21,196 nucleotides of DNA from a virus. How positions within the stretch are numbered: position 1 is the first letter of the stretch; the number at the start of each line of letters is the position of its first letter. Below, one piece after another: positions 7,489-17,600 of this stretch. The position numbers and the translations under genes are program-made. Below the pieces are notes generated by a model. The model was given only the letters and a program-made list of their open reading frames with translations. It did not search any database and was not told the origin of the DNA. The DNA lies in the IMG/VR virus record IMGVR_UViG_2667527214_000001; one strand, written 5' to 3'.

Positions 7489-8277
7489 TTAGTCGTCGAA
7501 GGGGTGTTTGATCCGGACCCGGTCGCTCCCGTAGTGGGTACTCTCGAGCGTCCAATCGCGCGAGTCGATCCGCTGCAGCGTTGTATCGTCCGAGTAGATC
7601 CACTCGGAACCGATCGTGTTGCCCGCGTCGTCGCTGAACCGGCGAAGCGTGAGCGGTTCGCCGTCGACGAGGAGATCGTCGGGAAGCGTCCGCGGGCAGG
7701 TTTCGGCGTCGGCCTTGTGAACGTCGGCCGGGTACTCGACGATGCCGCGGACCTTGTCGAGGTCGTTGCCGGAGCCGAAGCCGCCGAGCATCGACGCCTG
7801 ACACTGTGAGGCGATGTCTTCGTCGAGTTTCGCGAACCGCTGAGTGACCCACCCGACGCCCATTCCGTCGCCGTGCCACGTCGTCGCGAGCGTGTCGAAA
7901 GCGTCCGGGTAGCCCTTCCCTTGCGGCGCGAGCCGGTGGGCCTCGTCCAACCCGAGGAACGTCCGTTCGTCCAGCTGGGCCAGCGCCTCGATCACCGTCG
8001 CGATCGTCTCGCGCCAGGCGTCGTCGGTCATCCCGTCGCGACCGAGCTGCAGGTTCCCGTTGTCCTCAAGGATCTGCCGCCACTCGGCCCGAGACAGGTT
8101 CTCCGTGCCGGGTCGGACCGGGAGCCGCTGCAGGAGTCCCGACTCGACCAGCCCGGTGTACTCGTCCTTGTAGTCGACGAGAACCGTCCGGTCGTACTCC
8201 GGCGCGTTGCGCTCCGTGTACGCCTGTAGGCCGTAGCTTTTCCCCCAGTTCGTGCGGGCACCGAACGCGAGGTTCAT
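7489..8277 (-). CDS. Genome-packaging ATPase (FtsK/HerA superfamily, PRD1 P9/SH1-like)
   Basis: Walker A ARTNWGKS, Walker B FLGLDEAH, VTQR sensor motif; lies upstream of the MCP genes. Confidence 0.88.
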   Translation of the reverse strand: MNLAFGARTNWGKSYGLQAYTERNAPEYDRTVLVDYKDEYTGLVESGLLQRLPVRPGTENLSRAEWRQILEDNGNLQLGRDGMTDDAWRETIATVIEALAQLDERTFLGLDEAHRLAPQGKGYPDAFDTLATTWHGDGMGVGWVTQRFAKLDEDIASQCQASMLGGFGSGNDLDKVRGIVEYPADVHKADAETCPRTLPDDLLVDGEPLTLRRFSDDAGNTIGSEWIYSDDTTLQRIDSRDWTLESTHYGSDRVRIKHPFDD

Positions 8278-8852
8278 TCCTCGAGGTCCTCCGCTACCTC
8301 GTAGATGCCTTGCTCGGCCATCTCGAGCCCGCCGGCGAGTGCCTCCTCAAGGACGGCTTGCCGTCTCTCGTCGGACCACTCGATGACGGCCTCGCGGAAC
8401 GTCTCGAGGTCGTCGACATCGAAGCGGGCCCGAACGTGGGCCGTCGCGAGTTCGTCGACGCCGCCCTCGATTCCCTGCTCACGGTAGCGGTCGGCCCACG
8501 TCTCTTTGGTCTCCTGCCACTCTTCCGCCGTCTGGTCGGCGTACTGAGCGGCTTCCTCAGCGTTCTCGAGGTCGTGCATCGCCTCCGTGACGTACCACGA
8601 GGGGAGCGAGCCGTCGATCATCGCGAGGGCCATCGAGCGGATTTGACCGACGCGGTCGTCGACCGTCGGCAGTCCCTCGATGGGTTCGATGTCGTCGCCG
8701 GCCGCCTCCTGGAGGTCGGCGACGGCCTCCATGATCCGCCGCTCGCGATGGGCGACGATCGAGAGGAACGCCTCGGCCTGCTGGCTCTTGAAGAACTGTT
8801 CTGCCATCGCTTTCCGTGGATCTCCGCCGGTTGCAAGATTTCGCAGATTCAT
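8274..8852 (-). CDS. Hypothetical alpha-helical acidic protein (192 aa)
   Basis: Start corrected to the ATG at 8852 (MNLRNL), which overlaps the upstream stop (ATGA). Also ATGA-coupled to the ATPase. Confidence 0.8.
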   Translation of the reverse strand: MNLRNLATGGDPRKAMAEQFFKSQQAEAFLSIVAHRERRIMEAVADLQEAAGDDIEPIEGLPTVDDRVGQIRSMALAMIDGSLPSWYVTEAMHDLENAEEAAQYADQTAEEWQETKETWADRYREQGIEGGVDELATAHVRARFDVDDLETFREAVIEWSDERRQAVLEEALAGGLEMAEQGIYEVAEDLEE

Positions 8853-10792: not shown

Positions 10793-11115
10793 CAGTAGGC
10801 TCCGGTGATATAGCGGGCGAGCCGGCAGTTCTTCAGCGTCCGCGAGTGGCCGTCGTAGCCGCCTTCTGGGTCGGTCTGTTGGAGCGACGAGCGCTCGAGG
10901 ATATCCTCGAGGTCGGGGGTGACGTGCCAGGATTTCTGGCCGGTCGGAGTGTCGACCCAGACGACCGGCCACCCGTCGTGCCAGTACCAGCCGGCGGTGT
11001 TCGGGCCCCAGGTGAGCCGGATCGCCCTCGCGAAGGCGATCGCGAGGAGATTTCGGTCGTGATAGACCTCGTCGGGAAGCTTCTCATCAGTCGGTGGTGG
11101 GTTGTCTGTCCCCAT
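10792..11115 (-). CDS. Small viral protein of the (W/Y)DGH-motif type
   Basis: YHDRN.L...VVWVDTPTGQKSWHV...GYDGHS...RL resembles a widespread small phage protein family ending in WDGH(T/S)...RL. First gene of the minus-strand operon. Confidence 0.65.
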   Translation of the reverse strand: MGTDNPPPTDEKLPDEVYHDRNLLAIAFARAIRLTWGPNTAGWYWHDGWPVVWVDTPTGQKSWHVTPDLEDILERSSLQQTDPEGGYDGHSRTLKNCRLARYITGAY

Positions 11116-11160
11116 GGTCAGATGGGTCTCTCGAGCGAGTGATAGCGGTCGGGAATATCA

Positions 11161-11191
11161 TAGTCTCGTACTGGTGAGACTAATGTTTAAA
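11161..11191. promoter_or_regulatory. Divergent control region: inverted repeat TAGTCTC-N8-GAGACTA next to a TTTAAA TATA box
   Basis: IR at 11161-11167 and 11176-11182. TTTAAA at 11186-11191 lies about 30 bp upstream of the ATG at 11221. Confidence 0.6.
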
Positions 11192-11220
11192 CAGATTCAG
11201 CACTAGTTAGGAATGTAGCC

Positions 11221-11418
11221 ATGCCGATCCACCAGTTGACACAAGTTGGTCGTACGTCGGGCGGTGTTGTACTCCCGAAAAGCGAGCTTCGGGCGCTCGG
11301 GTTGGTAGATGAGGACGGCAACGTGAAAGATCAGCCAGTACGGATCACTCGGACAGGTGATGAAACGTGGGAAGTATCGTTGATTGATCCGAACGATTAT
11401 CCGGTACAAAACGTCTAA
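11221..11418 (+). CDS. AbrB/MazE/SpoVT-like swapped-hairpin DNA-binding protein (repressor candidate)
   Basis: LTQVGRTSGGVVLPKSELRALGL...VRI matches the AbrB-fold pattern. Transcribed divergently from the virion operon. Confidence 0.75.
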   Translation: MPIHQLTQVGRTSGGVVLPKSELRALGLVDEDGNVKDQPVRITRTGDETWEVSLIDPNDYPVQNV

Positions 11419-11537
11419 TCGATCGAATTTCTTGTTGAACGGTACAATATATGGGTTCATATATTTGATGATTCTAACTCCGTTCTCATTCCTCATATGA
11501 CAAGCTTTTATGTATTTATGGTTAGTATGGATTAGCA

Positions 11538-12296
11538 ATGGATACAAAATTACTATATCTTGATGAGTCGGGGGACAGCGGTTGGCTACCTGATCACGGT
11601 GGGAATAGTACTGAGCCATATCTCATTTATGGCGGAGTCGTTCTGTCACCAGCACAGAATCACTTATTGAAGCAGGAACTGCATGACATCATAAACAAGT
11701 ATTTTTCATCCCCTATGGATCGGCCTGAAGAAATACACTATGCCGATATCTGCCATCATAATGGGCCCTATAGCCAACTTTCTAATGAGGAATCCAGTGA
11801 TCTTCGAGATGATCTCTTTGAATTAATCTTGGATATTGAGCCGATGCTGATGGGGATGGTGATAGATAAATATGAGCTAAAGGAAGAATATGGTGCTTAT
11901 GCAAACCCCCCGAAAAGACTAGCATTTAGAGCAATTGCTGACCGATTTCATAAACAGCTCCAATCTGATGACGCAGTAGGAATGATTACGATGGATGCTT
12001 CCGAAAGGAGTATCGACGCTAGACTTCGAGAACTCATTTACCAAGCCCAAGATAGTGGTATCAAATTGGATGGAGCTAGCTCAAAATACGACTCAACTCT
12101 CCCTAGAATAATGGATACCGTGACCGTTACTCCATCAGAGATGAGTCCAGGCATTCAATTAGCAGATATTGTAGCTTACCAAATCCGCCATCAATATCGA
12201 TATGATAATGACAGTCATGGCTTCCAAGCAATTGAACATTTGTTTCGGGACCCCGATGGTTACAGCCTTACGGAGCCCGCAATCTTCCCCGACTAA
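11538..12296 (+). CDS. DUF3800 domain protein (RNase H-like fold, predicted nuclease)
   Basis: N-terminal LLYLDESG and C-terminal IQLADIVAY, the family's DE and QxxD motifs. AT-rich; TTTTAT box at 11506-11511. Confidence 0.85.
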   Translation: MDTKLLYLDESGDSGWLPDHGGNSTEPYLIYGGVVLSPAQNHLLKQELHDIINKYFSSPMDRPEEIHYADICHHNGPYSQLSNEESSDLRDDLFELILDIEPMLMGMVIDKYELKEEYGAYANPPKRLAFRAIADRFHKQLQSDDAVGMITMDASERSIDARLRELIYQAQDSGIKLDGASSKYDSTLPRIMDTVTVTPSEMSPGIQLADIVAYQIRHQYRYDNDSHGFQAIEHLFRDPDGYSLTEPAIFPD

Positions 12297-12303
12297 AGAT
12301 AGG

Positions 12304-12386
12304 TCTACGAAAGTAGGAACAGAGGGGGAAGAATCCACGGGCATTGCGCCCTCCCTCCTATACGAATGTCTAAGCGGAAGCACATT
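12304..12386 (+). ncRNA. Candidate structured RNA 3' of the DUF3800 gene
   Basis: TCTAC-GAAA-GTAGG (GNRA hairpin, 12304-12317). GAGGG/CCCTC (12322-26/12353-57) encloses GGGC-ATTGC-GCCC (12339-12351). AATGT/ACATT (12365-69/12382-86). Confidence 0.4.
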
Positions 12387-12506
12387 ATAACTTACGGACC
12401 GCACTGATATCTGCAAATTAAACCTCGACAGTATCTATTCGTTATACAGGCTGCTGTAAAGGAGGCGACTTAATAAACCGTACAAGATTTGATTTCCGTT
12501 AGTAAC

Positions 12507-13376
12507 TTAGTTTCCAAACTGCGCTATTGGTGATTGACTTGTTACGAGATAGTGACTACCAATTAGATCAGTCTCAATCTCGGTCCGCTTGTGTCTTGCA
12601 TCCATTCCGTTTGGAATGGCGACTGAAAAGAGCGCCTCACTGCCGAACGTATTCTCGTGTTCTCGGAGTCGCCGTGTGAATGCTTTCGTCTCGCCGATAT
12701 ACGCCAGTGGTGGCGCATCACTTTCGTACCAAATCCGATAGACACCTGCGTCGGGTAGATCCGGCTCAAGTCGATCTTCAAGCCGATAGGGATCACTCCA
12801 TTCGAGACCCATCCAGTCAGGTGCGGTCACATCGTCGACGTTCTTCCAGGGAACCGGCCCACGACCGGGTTCGGTATTCGGTTCAATTTCTCCGTCTTCG
12901 AGCGGGCCACCGACGTATCCATCACTTCGGTATCCCGACTGTGAGTAGCCGGGAATGATCCGGCCGAAGTTCGCGGTCGGGCTCTCATCCATTTCACGAC
13001 GGGCGATCGCGATGAGTGCTTCCTCGAGGCCCTTCCGGTCCTGATCGGTAGTAGCGAGCGACGGTGTCGCGGTCGACACTTCGAACGCCGGTCCGTCTCG
13101 ATCACGAACTGCCCACAGACATGGTGCAGCTGTGTGTGGATCACGGAACGGCATCTCTTCGGAGTAGACGTTCCGTGCCAGCGCGCTCACCCGTCCACGT
13201 GTACTCCGGCCGGTTTGACCAATGTACTCGAGGCCGTCCCGGTCATGATGGCGAACGCGGTAGAGTCCCGGATCGGTCGAGATCGCCGTCAACTCATCGT
13301 CTGTCGGATCAAGAGATAGCCATTCGCTCCAGTTTATTTCCATCCAGTCATCCGCATACAGATTTCCCTCGTCCAT
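12507..13376 (-). CDS. Protein with two tandem GIY-YIG nuclease domains
   Basis: PGLYRV...EYIGQTG...R and AGVYRI...AYIGETK...RRLREH. Both domains are preceded by a similar W..(I/L).WS segment and followed by a conserved Glu helix (GLEEALI / EIETDLI). Confidence 0.85.
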   Translation of the reverse strand: MDEGNLYADDWMEINWSEWLSLDPTDDELTAISTDPGLYRVRHHDRDGLEYIGQTGRSTRGRVSALARNVYSEEMPFRDPHTAAPCLWAVRDRDGPAFEVSTATPSLATTDQDRKGLEEALIAIARREMDESPTANFGRIIPGYSQSGYRSDGYVGGPLEDGEIEPNTEPGRGPVPWKNVDDVTAPDWMGLEWSDPYRLEDRLEPDLPDAGVYRIWYESDAPPLAYIGETKAFTRRLREHENTFGSEALFSVAIPNGMDARHKRTEIETDLIGSHYLVTSQSPIAQFGN

Positions 13377-13478
13377 GTCTGTTCGTTGTACAATACAAGC
13401 CGATCACCTATCATTAAACCCTCAGTTGAAATCCGAACCTTGATGTCGTGGCCTGTAGGTTTGTAGAAGTTGCTCTGG

Positions 13479-13844
13479 CTATGAATTGAGGCTGTTTTTC
13501 ACAAATTCATACATGTCTCTGAAGATAGTGATACAACCCCAGAATAATTGAGAAACCCACGAAGAGAGCATTTGAACTAGGTTCTGTGTATGATTGGTTG
13601 GTGAGTTCCATAAATCAAAAACTGTCCCAAGAAGAAATTCAGTAAGGATTGAGTACAGCCCGAGAGCTATCGATGTAATAAGGGTGGTAAGCGCAGATAC
13701 TCCCCGAAAGAATACCGTTTGTAAGAACTCTCGCGGCCAACTTACATACTGTTCAGTAAACGGTTGCTTCCTTGGGTTCTTTCGTTTCCACCATCCGTAG
13801 AGGGCATTCATCTTGCGACGTATATACTGCAGCACTTCAAACAT
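13479..13844 (-). CDS. Hypothetical membrane protein (cargo, AT-rich)
   Basis: Hydrophobic stretch GVSALTTLITSIALGLYSIL; basic N-terminus; atypical composition, so coding status is uncertain. Confidence 0.45.
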   Translation of the reverse strand: MFEVLQYIRRKMNALYGWWKRKNPRKQPFTEQYVSWPREFLQTVFFRGVSALTTLITSIALGLYSILTEFLLGTVFDLWNSPTNHTQNLVQMLSSWVSQLFWGCITIFRDMYEFVKNSLNS

Positions 13845-13924
13845 ATCTAATAGTTACTCTAATGGCACTTGAACCTACTTCGTTTACCGTCCAGTGGGTT
13901 TGTAGAAGTACTAACTGTAGTGAT

Positions 13925-13950
13925 GTCCGAGAAGTAGAGTAGTATAGGCT
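13925..13950. repeat. Repeated site copy 1 (degenerate right arm): GTCCG-AGAA-GTAGA-GTAG-TAT-AGGCT
   Basis: Shares GTCCGAGAA-N5-GTAG with copies 2 and 3; intergenic. Confidence 0.65.
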
Positions 13951-13977
13951 CTTCTGTCCTCTTATATCCAGGTCAAA

Positions 13978-14340
13978 TCACCCAGAACCATTCTCTGAGT
14001 TTGTGTCTGATTTTTCACCAGTGACTGCTGGAACTGGAACAGTTGTAGCAGCAGTTGCTGCTGGTGGTTCAACGTGGACTGCTTTAGCGATGCCGGTGAT
14101 AGAAGCAAAGAAGGTTACTATCACAATTTCTGAGAAGGGGCCAGAACAGAGGTAGTTCACTAAACCTGCAAATGCAAGGATCACTGTAAGCCATGGTCCC
14201 CACTCCAATACCCATGTAGCGACTTTGTGTTCCCTTTCGCTTTCAGCAACAAGTATGACCTTTGGTAGACGGCATTTGATCTCCATGCTAGTAACTCCCC
14301 ACTCAGATAGAAAATAGTGTAGTGTCATTTCCATAGACAA
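13978..14340 (-). CDS. Hypothetical membrane protein (cargo, two TM-like segments)
   Basis: WVLEWGPWLTVILAFAGLVNY and IVIVTFFASITGIAKAV. The start may instead be the ATG at 14286. Confidence 0.55.
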   Translation of the reverse strand: MSMEMTLHYFLSEWGVTSMEIKCRLPKVILVAESEREHKVATWVLEWGPWLTVILAFAGLVNYLCSGPFSEIVIVTFFASITGIAKAVHVEPPAATAATTVPVPAVTGEKSDTNSENGSG

Positions 14341-14350
14341 AATTTCCTGT

Positions 14351-14376
14351 GTCCGAGAAGATTAGTAGGGCCGGAC
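14351..14376. repeat. Repeated site copy 2: GTCCG-AGAA-GATTA-GTAG-GGC-CGGAC
   Basis: Inverted GTCCG/CGGAC arms 16 bp apart; intergenic. Confidence 0.8.
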
Positions 14377-14414
14377 GATCGTCTGTACGGGAATGGCTGT
14401 TTTCGGTCAGGAAC

Positions 14415-14900
14415 TCACCTTTGGATAGAGAATACGGGAGTTACAGCGTCCGCGAAATCAACCAGCCATGCAGCGAATTTTGAGAGGGGATTGGTCAGGT
14501 CCTCACGTTCTAATGCGTCCTGACGTGCCCTGTCGAGATTCCTACTACACTCGTGATGGCAATCATGGATGCGCTGCTTCTGTTCGAGTGTTAGCGGAGC
14601 TAAACCTTGATAGTCATCTCCCAACACCCACCGACGCATTGTATGGTCACTATTCTCATCAGGAAACCGCTCGTAGAGTTCCTTAAACTCCTGATGCAGA
14701 AAGTCTCTCTCTGACATACCTTCCTCATCTGGATTTATTGCCCCGAGTCGGCGAGCACTTAAATCTGAAAGGCGTTCGTATGAATATCGTTCTCTAAGTG
14801 TGCTTAGTCTCTCTTCCAAGAACTTCTCGTTATTAGATGGGTCCGGGTCGTCGGCAAAAGGTGGATCAGATTGATTTGTTTCTCTATTGTCCGTGCTCAT
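14415..14900 (-). CDS. Hypothetical acidic protein (cargo)
   Basis: 161 aa with halophilic composition; own TATA-like CTTATT (minus strand, 14925-14930) about 25-30 bp upstream. Confidence 0.7.
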   Translation of the reverse strand: MSTDNRETNQSDPPFADDPDPSNNEKFLEERLSTLRERYSYERLSDLSARRLGAINPDEEGMSERDFLHQEFKELYERFPDENSDHTMRRWVLGDDYQGLAPLTLEQKQRIHDCHHECSRNLDRARQDALEREDLTNPLSKFAAWLVDFADAVTPVFSIQR

Positions 14901-14987
14901 GACGCTTAATTGTCTGGAGAGCCGAATAAGTGCTTTGGGGGACTCCTTGGCTGATAAATATGTATCCGTAGTTACTGCGAGCGCTGT

Positions 14988-15013
14988 GTCCGAGAACTCC
15001 GGTAGAGTCGGAC
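14988..15013. repeat. Repeated site copy 3: GTCCG-AGAA-CTCCG-GTAG-AGT-CGGAC
   Basis: Same arms and spacing as copy 2, and shares CTGTGTCCGAGAA (13 bp) with it. The IR extends to TGTCCGA/TCGGACA. Confidence 0.8.
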
Positions 15014-15073
15014 AGAATCACCCCGATCTCCCCCTCGAGGACCACCGAAAGAACTAGATTGCTGGCGGTTTTT

Positions 15074-15097
15074 GTCCGGAATGCAGGCAACCCGGAC
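15074..15097. promoter_or_regulatory. Inverted repeat GTCCGG-N12-CCGGAC immediately before the short recombinase ATG
   Basis: Same GTCCG/CGGAC arms as the repeated sites but 2 bp closer; ends 2 bp before the ATG at 15100. Confidence 0.55.
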
Positions 15098-15099
15098 GC

Positions 15100-15687
15100 A
15101 TGAATCTCCAACAGCACGAGAACCGCGACGACATGAAGGTCTGGCTCAGCCAGAACGAAGTAGAACAGTTGCTCGAGGTGGCCGACGATACCCAGCAGCG
15201 AATTGCATTCGCACTCGGAGCGCGATGCGGCCTCCGCTCACACGAAGTCCTCGACGTTGCGCCGGAGGATATCGTCGATACCGACGCCGGGACGATGCTC
15301 CGCGTCTGGCACGGGAAGGGCGACAAGTTCCGAGAGACGCCGGTCCCGCGAGATCTCGCGACGACGATCCGGACGGTCGACGACGTACGCGACGCACCGA
15401 CCAGCTCGTCGCTCGTCGAGATCACCAGTACGCGGTCACTCCGGCGGTGGGTCCGATCGGCTGCCGACCAGCTGTACGACGAGACGGGAGACGCTGGGTG
15501 GGACCATCTCGGCTTCCACGATCTCCGCCGGACCTGGGCGACCGCGCTCGCCTCCGACGACGTTGATCCGCTACTGGTCTGTGACTGGGGCGGATGGAAC
15601 GATCTCGAGACCTTCCTCGAGCATTATCGAGGAAGCTACAGCCCTGAAGCACAGCAGCGGGAGCGTGAGAAAGTTGGTTGGCTCTAA
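15100..15687 (+). CDS. Short tyrosine recombinase (catalytic domain only, 195 aa)
   Basis: CGLRSHE (R), HGKGDK (K), FHDLRRTWA (HxxR), GGW (W), EHY (Y). No N-terminal core-binding domain; unrelated in length and sequence to the two flanking integrases. Confidence 0.92.
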   Translation: MNLQQHENRDDMKVWLSQNEVEQLLEVADDTQQRIAFALGARCGLRSHEVLDVAPEDIVDTDAGTMLRVWHGKGDKFRETPVPRDLATTIRTVDDVRDAPTSSSLVEITSTRSLRRWVRSAADQLYDETGDAGWDHLGFHDLRRTWATALASDDVDPLLVCDWGGWNDLETFLEHYRGSYSPEAQQREREKVGWL

Positions 15688-15811
15688 GCTACCGCTCAAT
15701 ATATGTGCGGACTTAGCGTTGTTATTTCCGTTAGTGCCGGTGATTATGGTAATGGCATTCTGAAAACAGTTCGCATATTCACCCACCTATATCTACGATA
15801 ATGCACAACCA

Positions 15812-16594
15812 TCAAATATTTATCATCTCTTTGAGTCTATGAATCCATATTCTGATTTGATCTCTGATAGTAATTTCATGTCTATGAGCCGATAACGCCT
15901 CTGGAAATACATTCTTAGCCTCTTGTTCATCTGTAGCCATAAATTCCATGCCCGTTGGGTAGCCACTGTACCGGTCATTTTGGAGATCAATAGTTGCAGC
16001 AAATGGAGTGATTATTACAGTCTGTGATTCTCCAGTGAATTCTTGATATTCCACAACGAAGCAGAATTTAACTTCTTTAATACCATCTTGTTTCATTTCG
16101 TTAAAAGCCTCCAAGAGCCATTTCATGTCCCAGGTCTCGGAGTCTTCTGTTTCTCTAACTCCAATTTTAGGTTTGCAACTAAACTCTTCTTTTTCGCCTG
16201 GCTGTAATACAGAACCTTCTACTCCCTCTAGTCCATCTTGATTCAGATAAACACCGACTTCAGAATACTTCTGTTTGTAGTCTTCTGGAACCGTAAAATA
16301 TGTTATCAACTTTAGATCCTTAGCAATACCATTTCCGTAATTGCTTAGGCTTATTTCACTCTCGATCGTATCAGAATCCTGTAGTTTACCAGATACAATT
16401 GCCTTATGATCTGCTGCTAAAAGTTCCTTCTGCTGGCCGTAAAGCCGATAGAGAAGGTAAGATATGATGACGGAAAATGAAGACAAAATCACCTCTGCCC
16501 AACCCGTAAGCCATTTTGGTGGTGAGGATAGTTGTAATGAAATAGCTAATAGATAATCCAACATATTGTATAGTAACGAATTCTGGCTACTCAC
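15812..16594 (-). CDS. Membrane-anchored hypothetical protein (cargo, AT-rich)
   Basis: TM helix WAEVILSSFSVIISYLLYRLY followed by an acidic beta-rich domain. The start codon is uncertain. Confidence 0.75.
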   Translation of the reverse strand: MSSQNSLLYNMLDYLLAISLQLSSPPKWLTGWAEVILSSFSVIISYLLYRLYGQQKELLAADHKAIVSGKLQDSDTIESEISLSNYGNGIAKDLKLITYFTVPEDYKQKYSEVGVYLNQDGLEGVEGSVLQPGEKEEFSCKPKIGVRETEDSETWDMKWLLEAFNEMKQDGIKEVKFCFVVEYQEFTGESQTVIITPFAATIDLQNDRYSGYPTGMEFMATDEQEAKNVFPEALSAHRHEITIRDQIRIWIHRLKEMINI

Positions 16595-16801
16595 CCTATC
16601 CTTTACGATATGGTTTCCCTTTTAGGCGACCACGACTAATTATGTGCGCATATTGAAAGAGTATATCTTCATTGTTCGGATGATAATAGATAGTCTGCGT
16701 TCAGTACACGGCTTCTAATAGCTATCGAGGAGGTGCATGACAACTTCCGGAAGGCCTTCGTCTGTACTTATTGCTGATAGTCGGTAGCCGAATGGGTATA
16801 A

Positions 16802-17092
16802 TTAGAGGAGACTATGAATCGTAGGCTGAGGAAGGTTCTCTACATCTAATTCTCCCTCGAGATACCTCTGACCTCTACCCGTGATCTCGTACATGTGATG
16901 ATCACTAAACACGGGTGTCACCAGACCAGCCTGTGTAAGCATCCTGCACCGCTCTTGAATCCTCCCTCGAGAAGCATTGAATCCCATAGCCTGTTCCATG
17001 TAGCGAGGGGTTGACCAAGAATCCTCTTCGAGGTACTCGAGGATTCGTTCATCGAGTGTACACATCCATCGAGCTGGTCTTCGGTCCGTCAC
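16802..17092 (-). CDS. phiH1-repressor-like winged-helix protein
   Basis: WMCTLDERILEYL...RCRML..AGLV...MYEITGRGQRYLEGELD; GTG start overlapping the upstream stop. Confidence 0.85.
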   Translation of the reverse strand: MTDRRPARWMCTLDERILEYLEEDSWSTPRYMEQAMGFNASRGRIQERCRMLTQAGLVTPVFSDHHMYEITGRGQRYLEGELDVENLPQPTIHSLL

Positions 17093-17400
17093 GATTCCGA
17101 GGTTTCACTCGCCGTAGGGCCGTCTCTCGAGCCGTTTCCGTTAAGGTAGACTCCGTTTTCAGCGTCGTACTCCTCATCAAGATAGGCCTCTCCTCGATCA
17201 GTGATGATATATACGCCATTTCCGAGCGGAGTCAGTAATCCGTTTTCGGCGAGCTTCTTACAGCGTCGTGAGACAGAAGAATGAGAAATCCTGAGACCCT
17301 CTTCTTCGGCAAGTTCACCGACTGGTTTTGCGCCTTCCTTTCGTAGAGTCTCGAGAATACGATCGTCCCAGATCGTCATCCACGTTCCCGACTTCCTCAT
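17089..17400 (-). CDS. phiH1-repressor-like winged-helix protein
   Basis: MR.S.TWMTIWDDRILETL...VSRRCKKLAENGLL...GVYIITDRGEAYLDEEYD. Start corrected to the ATG at 17400. Confidence 0.88.
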   Translation of the reverse strand: MRKSGTWMTIWDDRILETLRKEGAKPVGELAEEEGLRISHSSVSRRCKKLAENGLLTPLGNGVYIITDRGEAYLDEEYDAENGVYLNGNGSRDGPTASETSES

Positions 17401-17516
17401 TACTGCCCACTTCAGAACACACAAACCTATTCCTACGGTTTTCCCCACTCCATAGAACTATGACCTACTTTAGTCAGTCGTTGCATTTATGCAGAGTGAG
17501 CCTATACACAGAAACA

Positions 17517-17600
17517 CGGAGCTACCAACTTGGCTGAAGATGACTCTTGTTGGTATGTGAGACCGGGCGGCGCTGGCACGCCGCCCAGAAGGTAGCTCCG
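17517..17600 (+). promoter_or_regulatory. Structured 5' leader of the rightward operon
   Basis: CGGAGCTACC/GGTAGCTCCG (17517-26/17591-600) encloses GGGCGGCG-CTGGCA-CGCCGCCC (17565-86). Alternative pairing TACCAAC/GTTGGTA (17523-29/17549-55). TTTAT box at 17486-17490. Confidence 0.65.

Follow-up and report, generated by a model that had tools for sequence, protein, structure and literature searches.

A Candidate Gene-Cassette System with a Single-Domain Tyrosine Recombinase in Halobacteria

Introduction

Integrons, Xer/dif systems and Cre/loxP are the closest described counterparts of a locus that we analyzed in a stretch of 21,196 nucleotides of viral DNA (IMG/VR record IMGVR_UViG_2667527214_000001; hereafter the window, numbered from its first letter). 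In this locus, short repeats with inverted arms separate unrelated genes next to int195, the gene of a 195-amino acid (aa) tyrosine recombinase. The locus is closest to integrons in function and to Xer/dif-type systems in the build of its sites, and by membership it is neither. We consider it likely that the repeats are double-stranded recombination sites of int195 and that they border mobile gene cassettes.

As in integrons, the sedentary chromosomal ones included, the tyrosine recombinase is read away from an adjacent array, the site proximal to it is fixed and carries an enzyme-specific flank, co-oriented sites lie between unrelated cassettes with a fast turnover, one and the same cassette is found at different positions, and some of the cargo is defence-like. 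Site clusters with no recombinase nearby recall clusters of attC sites lacking integron-integrases (CALINs). Other features differ. Int195 is a catalytic domain of 195 aa that lacks both a core-binding domain and the IntI insertion, and its sites are 28-bp cores of the double-strand type with neither a stable single-strand hairpin nor a GTTRRRY box, whereas attC sites are imperfect palindromes of 57-141 bp with R''/L''/L'/R' boxes that fold as single-strand hairpins. Integron cassettes are promoterless, co-oriented and mostly single genes served by a common Pc promoter; those described here hold 0-3 genes in either orientation and so have no such shared promoter. The hosts, finally, are Halobacteria with their proviruses and plasmids.

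In Xer/dif-type systems, such as the pdif modules of Acinetobacter plasmids and the integrative mobile elements exploiting Xer (IMEX) that are stacked at dif, gene modules are likewise bounded by 28-bp sites made of two inverted arms and a short centre, and the catalytic domain of int195 is nearest to XerA and XerC in sequence and fold. Int195 is, however, a dedicated enzyme encoded beside its sites rather than the chromosome-dimer enzyme of the host, it falls far below the XerA and XerC family cut-offs, and its sites are direct instead of alternately inverted, with a variable centre of 7 nt. Cre/loxP shares with the present system a simple inverted-arm site immediately upstream of the recombinase gene and, at most loci, the presence of one site only; it differs in that multi-site co-oriented arrays with variable cargo occur here, and in that int195 has about half the size of Cre-type enzymes and no N-terminal DNA-clamping domain. 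An archaeal tyrosine-recombinase review gives single-domain haloarchaeal families only as uncharacterised, and we found no description of the system in that review, in an archaeal integron paper, in a tyrosine recombinase classification paper or in a Halorubrum island study.

Results

Repeated Sites in the Window

The window lies at C1:431754-452949 of its own genome (3.98 Mb, three contigs). Virus-like genes occupy its flanks and a larger integrase is encoded at each of its ends, so int195 is not the sole integrase of the element; no tRNA gene was found in the window, and hence no tRNA target. The array sits in an AT-rich island (G+C 39-55% across 11000-17500) inside DNA of 63-70% G+C, and within this island the recombinase gene itself is G+C-rich. 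A preliminary description, made from the sequence alone, had reported a 26-bp site at 13925-13950, 14351-14376 and 14988-15013, decayed in the right arm of the first copy. All three copies are present, on the + strand, and the full form GTCCG-N16-CGGAC is found in the window at 14351 and 14988 only, being absent from the decayed copy. TGTCCGAGAA is present exactly three times in the whole window, always on the + strand, compared with 0.09 copies expected, a count reached by none of 100 shuffles. The conserved unit proved larger than the motif first described, namely a 28-bp core TGTCCGAGAA-N7-AGAGTCGGACA (13924-13951, 14350-14377 and 14987-15014), and the 'GTAG' block that had been singled out, although present, is merely part of a (G/A)(T/C)AGAG right arm. 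In the core, two inverted arms (TGTCCGA / TCGGACA, with asymmetric inner bases) enclose a variable centre of 7 nt, which is how simple core sites of tyrosine recombinases are usually built.

As the preliminary description had stated, the copies occupy three consecutive intergenic gaps, upstream of the minus-strand open reading frames (ORFs) at 13479-13844, 13978-14340 and 14415-14900. The int-proximal site (14987..15014, + strand; core TGTCCGAGAA-CTCCGGT-AGAGTCGGACA) lies 113 bp upstream of the int ATG and reaches a position weight matrix (PWM) score of 49.0, the highest in the genome. The second site, or distal 1 (14350..14377, + strand; core TGTCCGAGAA-GATTAGT-AGGGCCGGACG; PWM 33.1), is located between ORF161 and ORF120. 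In the third, distal 2 (13924..13951, + strand; PWM 29.8), the left arm and spacer are intact and the right arm is decayed; its spacer, GTAGAGT, recurs in the site at C1:485924 and in other genomes. A second inverted repeat, GTCCGG-N12-CCGGAC, stands at 15074..15097 (+ strand), directly before the ATG at 15100, where it had already been noted, and variant forms of it occupy the same place in nearly all homologous loci; it is a candidate autoregulatory or second Int-binding site. Between the two repeats, CCGAAAGAACTAGATT (15045..15060, + strand) is kept across paralogs and homologs, and by the haloarchaeal consensus we take it to be a candidate B recognition element (BRE)/TATA promoter of int.

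The Recombinase

The ORF adjoining the array (15100..15687, + strand) encodes a tyrosine recombinase, as first proposed. PF00589 matches residues 15-178 with an E value of 1.2e-17, and the protein consists of the catalytic domain only. R46, K73, H140, R143, W166 and Y176 are invariant among 26 homologs of 193-200 aa; by this invariance and constant length, the enzyme looks active. The predicted model has a mean predicted local distance difference test score (pLDDT) of 75.8 and is weak after residue 150 (pLDDT <50 for 150-165 and 175-195), and Foldseek matched it with a probability of 1.00 to the catalytic domains of XerA, Cre, XerH and IntI4. PF00589, the catalytic residues and the fold together place int195 in the tyrosine recombinase superfamily. 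It is not an IntI-type integrase (TIGR02249, 37.8 bits against a cut-off of 265; PRK15417, 15.5 against 435), and its alignment to IntI4 (2a3v) covers query residues 9-87 only. The Xer families are equally distant (NF040815 for XerA, 40.6 bits against 220; TIGR02224 for XerC, 27.8 against 335), and alignments to solved Xer proteins begin at chain residues 105 (4a8e) and 126 (5hxy), so that the N-terminal domain of these proteins has no counterpart in int195. Members of the family were found in 109 of 401 sampled Halobacteria genomes and in 42 of 91 genera.

Several further members of the family were noted. The genome of the window encodes, at C1:2241312-2241899 (L008), a fourth paralog with only 47% identity to int195, whose subfamily is present in many Halobacteria genomes. 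In Natrarchaeobius versutus the homolog (L037 10001-10222) is interrupted after 74 codons, with the proximal site and a GIY-YIG cassette kept. At L026 (3545-4155 and 10001-10588) and at G279:C1:541930 and 549813, two int195 genes with the same orientation are separated by 6-8 kb, and each of them has its own proximal site.

Linkage of Sites and Recombinase

The genome that carries the window contains 14 strong sites (PWM 29.8-49.0; next best 20.4). The matrix was built from the same 14 sites, which makes the separation partly circular, though the gap is clear. They form five clusters, within each of which all sites share one orientation: cluster A in the window (three sites), cluster B at C1:2773356-2780637 (five sites) and cluster D at C1:1132861 (one site) have an int gene nearby, and cluster C at C1:485924-488057 (three sites) and cluster E at C2:172614-173867 (two sites) have none. 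In each of the three int195 paralogs (95-100% aa identity), a same-strand site precedes the ATG by exactly 113 bp, and the remaining sites of arrays A and B all lie upstream of this proximal site. Similarity among the three loci is confined to the stretch that opens with the site and closes with the int stop codon. Fixed at -113 and continuing on its right into the candidate int promoter, the proximal site resembles attI in its layout. The gaps that hold sites in array B are divergent, tandem and convergent, one site being placed between two convergent stop codons. The preliminary description had the copy farthest from the recombinase as the most degenerate; this is true of the window array but not of sister array B, where the PWM scores are 47.8, 41.6, 34.6, 38.8 and 45.1.

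Co-oriented clusters with no int gene, at C1:485166-488057 (L005), C2:172614-173867 (L007) and also C2:251904-251992, are comparable to attC clusters that lack an integrase. At 485166-485216, cluster C terminates in a right half-site, and an IS1595-like transposase is found between two of its sites. Tandem site pairs exactly 33 bp apart were seen in two genomes (C1:2778524 and 2778557 in the genome of the window; G079:C13:28273 and 28306) and could be an empty cassette or a double site.

We then compared 38 loci from genome contigs, with symmetrical 10-kb flanks, and 40 from whole genomes. About 70 homologous loci, nearly all of those examined, have a GTCCG-N14-17-CGGAC site at -108 to -131 as well as the second repeat at the ATG; with its int-specific right flank, this proximal site at about -110 is a near-constant feature of the int loci. 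The inner arms vary by lineage (GAGAA...AGAGT, GGAAA...GAAAGT, GATAA...ATCT, or perfect palindromes), and where distal sites are present (L017, L023, L084, L081, L095, L102) they repeat the inner arms that characterise the proximal site of the same locus. A search with locus-specific arms at a threshold of at least 19 of 25 arm matches gave 10 extra upstream + strand sites in the first set, three of which are one site in overlapping assemblies, and 16 in the second; downstream of int the same search found no + strand site in either set, and the handful of minus-strand matches are low-scoring or self-palindromic. Arrays contain 3-7 sites, the largest being those of G084 (seven) and G080 (five). 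On a Natrinema plasmid (L001), a homologous 195-aa integrase is accompanied by four co-oriented sites in four consecutive gaps, where the genes differ from those of the window and run the opposite way relative to the sites. The inverted-repeat motif thus accompanies recombinase homologs in dozens of genomes, where it separates variable genes that come in different orders.

Across the genus, the core pattern with up to three mismatches gave about 148 matches in 28 of 31 genomes, compared with one match for the reversed control pattern. Neighbouring sites within 5 kb were on the same strand in 48 of 50 pairs and on opposite strands in two (hand count of the match listing). An invertible-switch layout with inverted sites, like that of FimB/FimE or of shufflons, does not fit these direct pairs or the co-orientation of array sites with int. 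Multi-copy int loci were also considered as a sign of transposition of a [site]-int unit; we discarded this, as those of Natronoarchaeum, Salinigranum and Saliphagus consist of almost identical DNA over some 4-13 kb and probably reflect large duplications or overlapping contig ends.

Turnover of Cassettes and Homology Breakpoints

The genes next to the recombinase are variable rather than constant. Among 152 family genomes, DNA homology to 13400-15100 almost always begins at 14983-14988, the left edge of the proximal site, and the cassette DNA of the window has no relatives in these genomes except for ORF161 DNA on the Natrialba magadii plasmid pNMAG01. Seven related proviruses (L009, L010, L034, L015, L040, L043 and G084) match the window over the left arm, up to 11403, over int and over the right arm, which starts at about 16762; the cargo is not shared.

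Three pairs of genomes place the breakpoints at the sites themselves. Between the Natronoarchaeum loci L017 and L020, a 94%-identical flank stops exactly after the outer right element of one site, and the outer left element of the proximal site is exactly where homology restarts; between these shared flanks L017 has two cassettes and a middle site, and L020 has one different cassette. G084 and G092 have in common a 740-bp cassette of about 96% identity, where homology opens at the left edge of the left site, with the spacer TTGCGGT in both, and stops at the right site, within its spacer, once TGTCCGAGAA(c)TCGTA has been passed. This cassette is int-proximal in G092 and third from int in G084, which has two more cassettes between the right site and int. 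A 1.4-kb cassette common to L015 and L068 opens at a variant site and stops directly after the left arm TGTCCGAGAAT. These positions put the point of exchange within the 7-nt centre or beside it, which is where a tyrosine recombinase would be expected to act. Site-bounded cassettes differ between relatives and move as units, as those of integrons do. A [site]-GIY-YIG unit is common to array B and G084 and probably persists in decayed form in the window at 12437-12466. A small set of 7-nt spacers (CTGCAGT, CTCGGAG, TTGCGGT, GTAGAGT, TCACAGT and others) also recurs, the same spacer being proximal in some loci and distal elsewhere.

No sequencing run contained more than 13% of the sampled words. 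Four metagenome and isolate contig sets yielded only relatives of the int region, with alignments that are interrupted at 15002-15004, in the spacer of the site, and a few contigs of low depth that are identical to cassette DNA. No joints between sites were found in these four sets. In a soil metagenome run (X1), low-depth contigs of 151 nt lie over 13708-13861, 14399-14549 and 14660-14810; two have 0-1 differences to ORF161 DNA and one covers ORF121. This soil may harbour the strain itself or one very close to it.

Two other forms of variation were observed. A second variable slot at 15688-16800 of the window, with the orphan ORF260, opens exactly at the int stop codon and closes at about 16762, at the right arm of the provirus; its right border shows only a weak look-alike of a left half-site, CTGTACTTATTGC..., at 16764, and in G080 the corresponding slot is occupied by a C5 DNA methylase and one further gene. 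Between L010 (7222-8175) and L067 (oriented, 7664-8617), a 318-aa cassette gene (70% aa identity) is inverted relative to the neighbouring sites. Either orientation is apparently possible for a cassette or for part of one.

Outer Elements and Folding of the Sites

At the distal sites B4, C1, C2, E1 and E2 of the clusters, conserved structure extends over about 100 bp. Here the left outer element CGTAGTTACCGCGAG and the right outer element CGGTAAGTACAG are inverted repeats of each other of about 12 bp. A GTA(C/G)TTACCG-like left element is found at six of 10 proximal and about nine of 27 distal sites (about 15/37 overall), and its inverted repeat, CGGTAAGTAC, stands to the right of 6/27 distal sites. 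We therefore rejected the outer elements as a universal part of the site, since they are present in a minority, and only the 28-bp core is general. To the right of proximal sites, the outer element is replaced by the conserved upstream region of int, with CCGAAAGAACTAGATT followed by the second repeat. The proximal site of the window has a GTA(C/G)TTACCG-like left outer element, CGTAGTTACTGCGAG, at 14967..14981 (+ strand), which on a cassette model would be the 3' end of the last cassette.

A single-strand hairpin site of the attC kind was rejected, because the folds of six 108-nt site windows gave z values of -1.14 to +0.08 relative to shuffles, and no GTTRRRY/RYYYAAC boxes were seen in the aligned sites. 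An Rfam search of 11000-17600 returned no match at E values up to 0.1. A scan for bacterial-type promoters and terminators found nothing above shuffles, with a model that is ill-suited to archaea.

Cargo

The three cassettes of the window carry minus-strand orphan genes, none of which has a match in Pfam, NCBIfam or PADLOC or a homolog among the approximately 80 int loci. Cassette 1 encodes the acidic ORF161 (14415..14900), cassette 2 the small hydrophobic ORF120 (13978..14340), the start of which is uncertain, with ATGs at 14334 and 14287, and cassette 3 the small hydrophobic ORF121 (13479..13844). The copy on pNMAG01 is the sole DNA homolog of ORF161; it was rejected as a sign of cassette transfer, there being no sites around it.

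Farther out, at 12507..13376 on the minus strand, lies a gene for a GIY-YIG nuclease (PF01541) that recurs at the distal end of four int195 arrays. Its relatives in array B (L004 5425-6312), G084 (L067) and L037 (4754-5620) have 87-89% aa identity, each at a distance of 3.5-5.4 kb upstream of int. No recognised cassette lies farther out than this one in B and G084, and the same apparently applies to the window, where a probable, strongly decayed site at 12437..12466 (+ strand) would mark its outer edge; the evidence for this site is weak and consists of its alignment with the intact site B1, an equal distance to the GIY-YIG stop codon and the presence of the [site]-GIY-YIG unit in G084. The gene may be more than ordinary cargo.

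Across the arrays, cassettes measure 0.3-2.4 kb, hold 0-3 genes on either strand, often two or three, and carry mostly orphan genes. The mixed gene orientations are what would suggest that a cassette may have a promoter of its own, as the preliminary description proposed for at least one of them. Recognised cargo of sister arrays includes an AbiL/AriA-like (AbiL/PARIS-like) AAA_15/21 ATPase with a small partner (array B), DUF6884 (the PADLOC candidate PDC-M57A), GIY-YIG nucleases, a trypsin-like peptidase and a CBS protein. Some of the cargo may plausibly act in defence or exclusion. The earlier suggestion that such genes are loaded into a provirus finds partial support: some sister-array cassettes are defence-like, but the three orphan ORFs of the window lend it no such support, and the recipients include plasmids and other chromosomal islands in addition to proviruses.

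Discussion

The architecture of the sites, their linkage to int, their co-orientation and co-variation by lineage, the turnover of the cassettes and the homology breakpoints at the sites argue for recombination sites that border mobile cassettes. The original proposal of a haloarchaeal cassette-capture system that is not of the IntI kind gains from the sites found at homologs, the variable neighbours and the breakpoints in three genome pairs. The role of int195 as the enzyme, circular intermediates, entry mainly at the proximal site and the functions of the cargo are inferences from these observations. A circular cassette with one site would recombine with a resident site, preferably the proximal one, and insert; recombination between two direct sites would excise it again, with strand exchange in or next to the 7-nt centre. 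The outcome would be a fast-turnover cargo slot in the proviruses, plasmids and chromosomal islands of Halobacteria.

Several observations weigh against this reading. Most int loci (about 70-75%) show the proximal site only at the threshold used, and cassette capture may not be the main job of int195, given these mostly single-site loci. No recombination product, either a circle junction or a precise deletion, was seen. Some of the variation lies inside cassettes or directly after the int stop codon, where there is no recognisable site, and homologous recombination between repeats of 28-100 bp could also have produced the breakpoints or contributed to them. Int195 has no N-terminal core-binding domain, which is the DNA clamp of Xer/Cre-type enzymes. 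The 7-nt centres, moreover, differ between neighbouring sites of one array. Classical tyrosine recombinases require identical overlap regions, so that either heterology is tolerated here or the arrays are largely frozen.

Part of this evidence fits the best-surviving alternative, which we consider unlikely: that, similar to Cre/loxP, [site]-int serves mainly to maintain haloarchaeal plasmids and proviruses in the plasmid state or to resolve their multimers, and that the arrays are by-products, arising by occasional DNA capture or by tandem accretion and decay of elements and reshuffled by homologous recombination. A single site beside the recombinase is the commonest layout, just as loxP adjoins cre; with larger integrases at both ends of the element, int195 is not needed for integration; and the spacers within one array are heterogeneous. 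An active resolvase would, however, delete direct repeats of its resolution site, and arrays of 3-7 co-oriented sites stand in many genomes. Such a system also sits poorly with array clusters that have no int nearby, with one identical cassette at different array positions and breakpoints inside sites, and with the presence of the module in chromosomal islands far from any plasmid backbone.

Improbable, in our view, is the proposal that the repeats are operators of a transcription factor, either Int or a regulator of the element, which co-regulates the cargo and has spread as a duplicated regulatory module. Conserved outer half-sites around a variable centre do resemble dimeric operators, a related repeat lies on the int start, and all three copies in the window are upstream of ORFs. 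The array B site between two convergent stop codons speaks against a role as operator only, as no gene starts in a convergent gap, and on the Natrinema plasmid gene direction is reversed with respect to the sites. Since sites occur in divergent, tandem and convergent gaps and their orientation follows int instead of the neighbouring genes, they are not promoters or operators in a simple sense. The winged helix-turn-helix regulators of the window are absent from other site-bearing loci, and operators would leave the homology breakpoints at sites unexplained. That the repeats are selfish elements unrelated to the recombinase, such as miniature inverted-repeat transposable elements (MITEs) or repetitive extragenic palindromic (REP) sequences inserted into AT-rich intergenic DNA, can practically be dismissed: some copies are about 100 bp long with outer inverted repeats of about 12 bp, yet there are only 14-16 copies in a 4-Mb genome, all in a few co-oriented clusters, their position relative to int is constant across genera, and their single-strand folds are no better than those of shuffles.

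Recombination sites of int195 that border mobile cassettes remain the reading that we prefer. We are evenly divided on a broader proposal, namely that Halobacteria carry their own widespread gene-capture platform as a functional counterpart of the integron, with a minimal single-domain enzyme and double-stranded 28-bp sites, in which differing 7-nt centres are tolerated, defence, exclusion and orphan genes are shuttled among proviruses, plasmids and chromosomes, and int-less clusters are served in trans by int copies elsewhere in the genome.

How a catalytic-domain-only enzyme would bind and synapse its sites, and whether it would need identical spacers, are mechanistic questions that the system poses. 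If int195 moves cassettes, the compact recombinase with its 28-bp site pair could serve as a genetic tool for halophiles, and it would represent a second, independently built integron-type solution for the capture and turnover of accessory genes, in archaea and by the smallest kind of tyrosine recombinase. It would provide a handle for new archaeal defence or exclusion genes, located between sites, and would explain the rapid turnover of AT-rich 'orphan gene' islands in haloarchaeal proviruses and plasmids.

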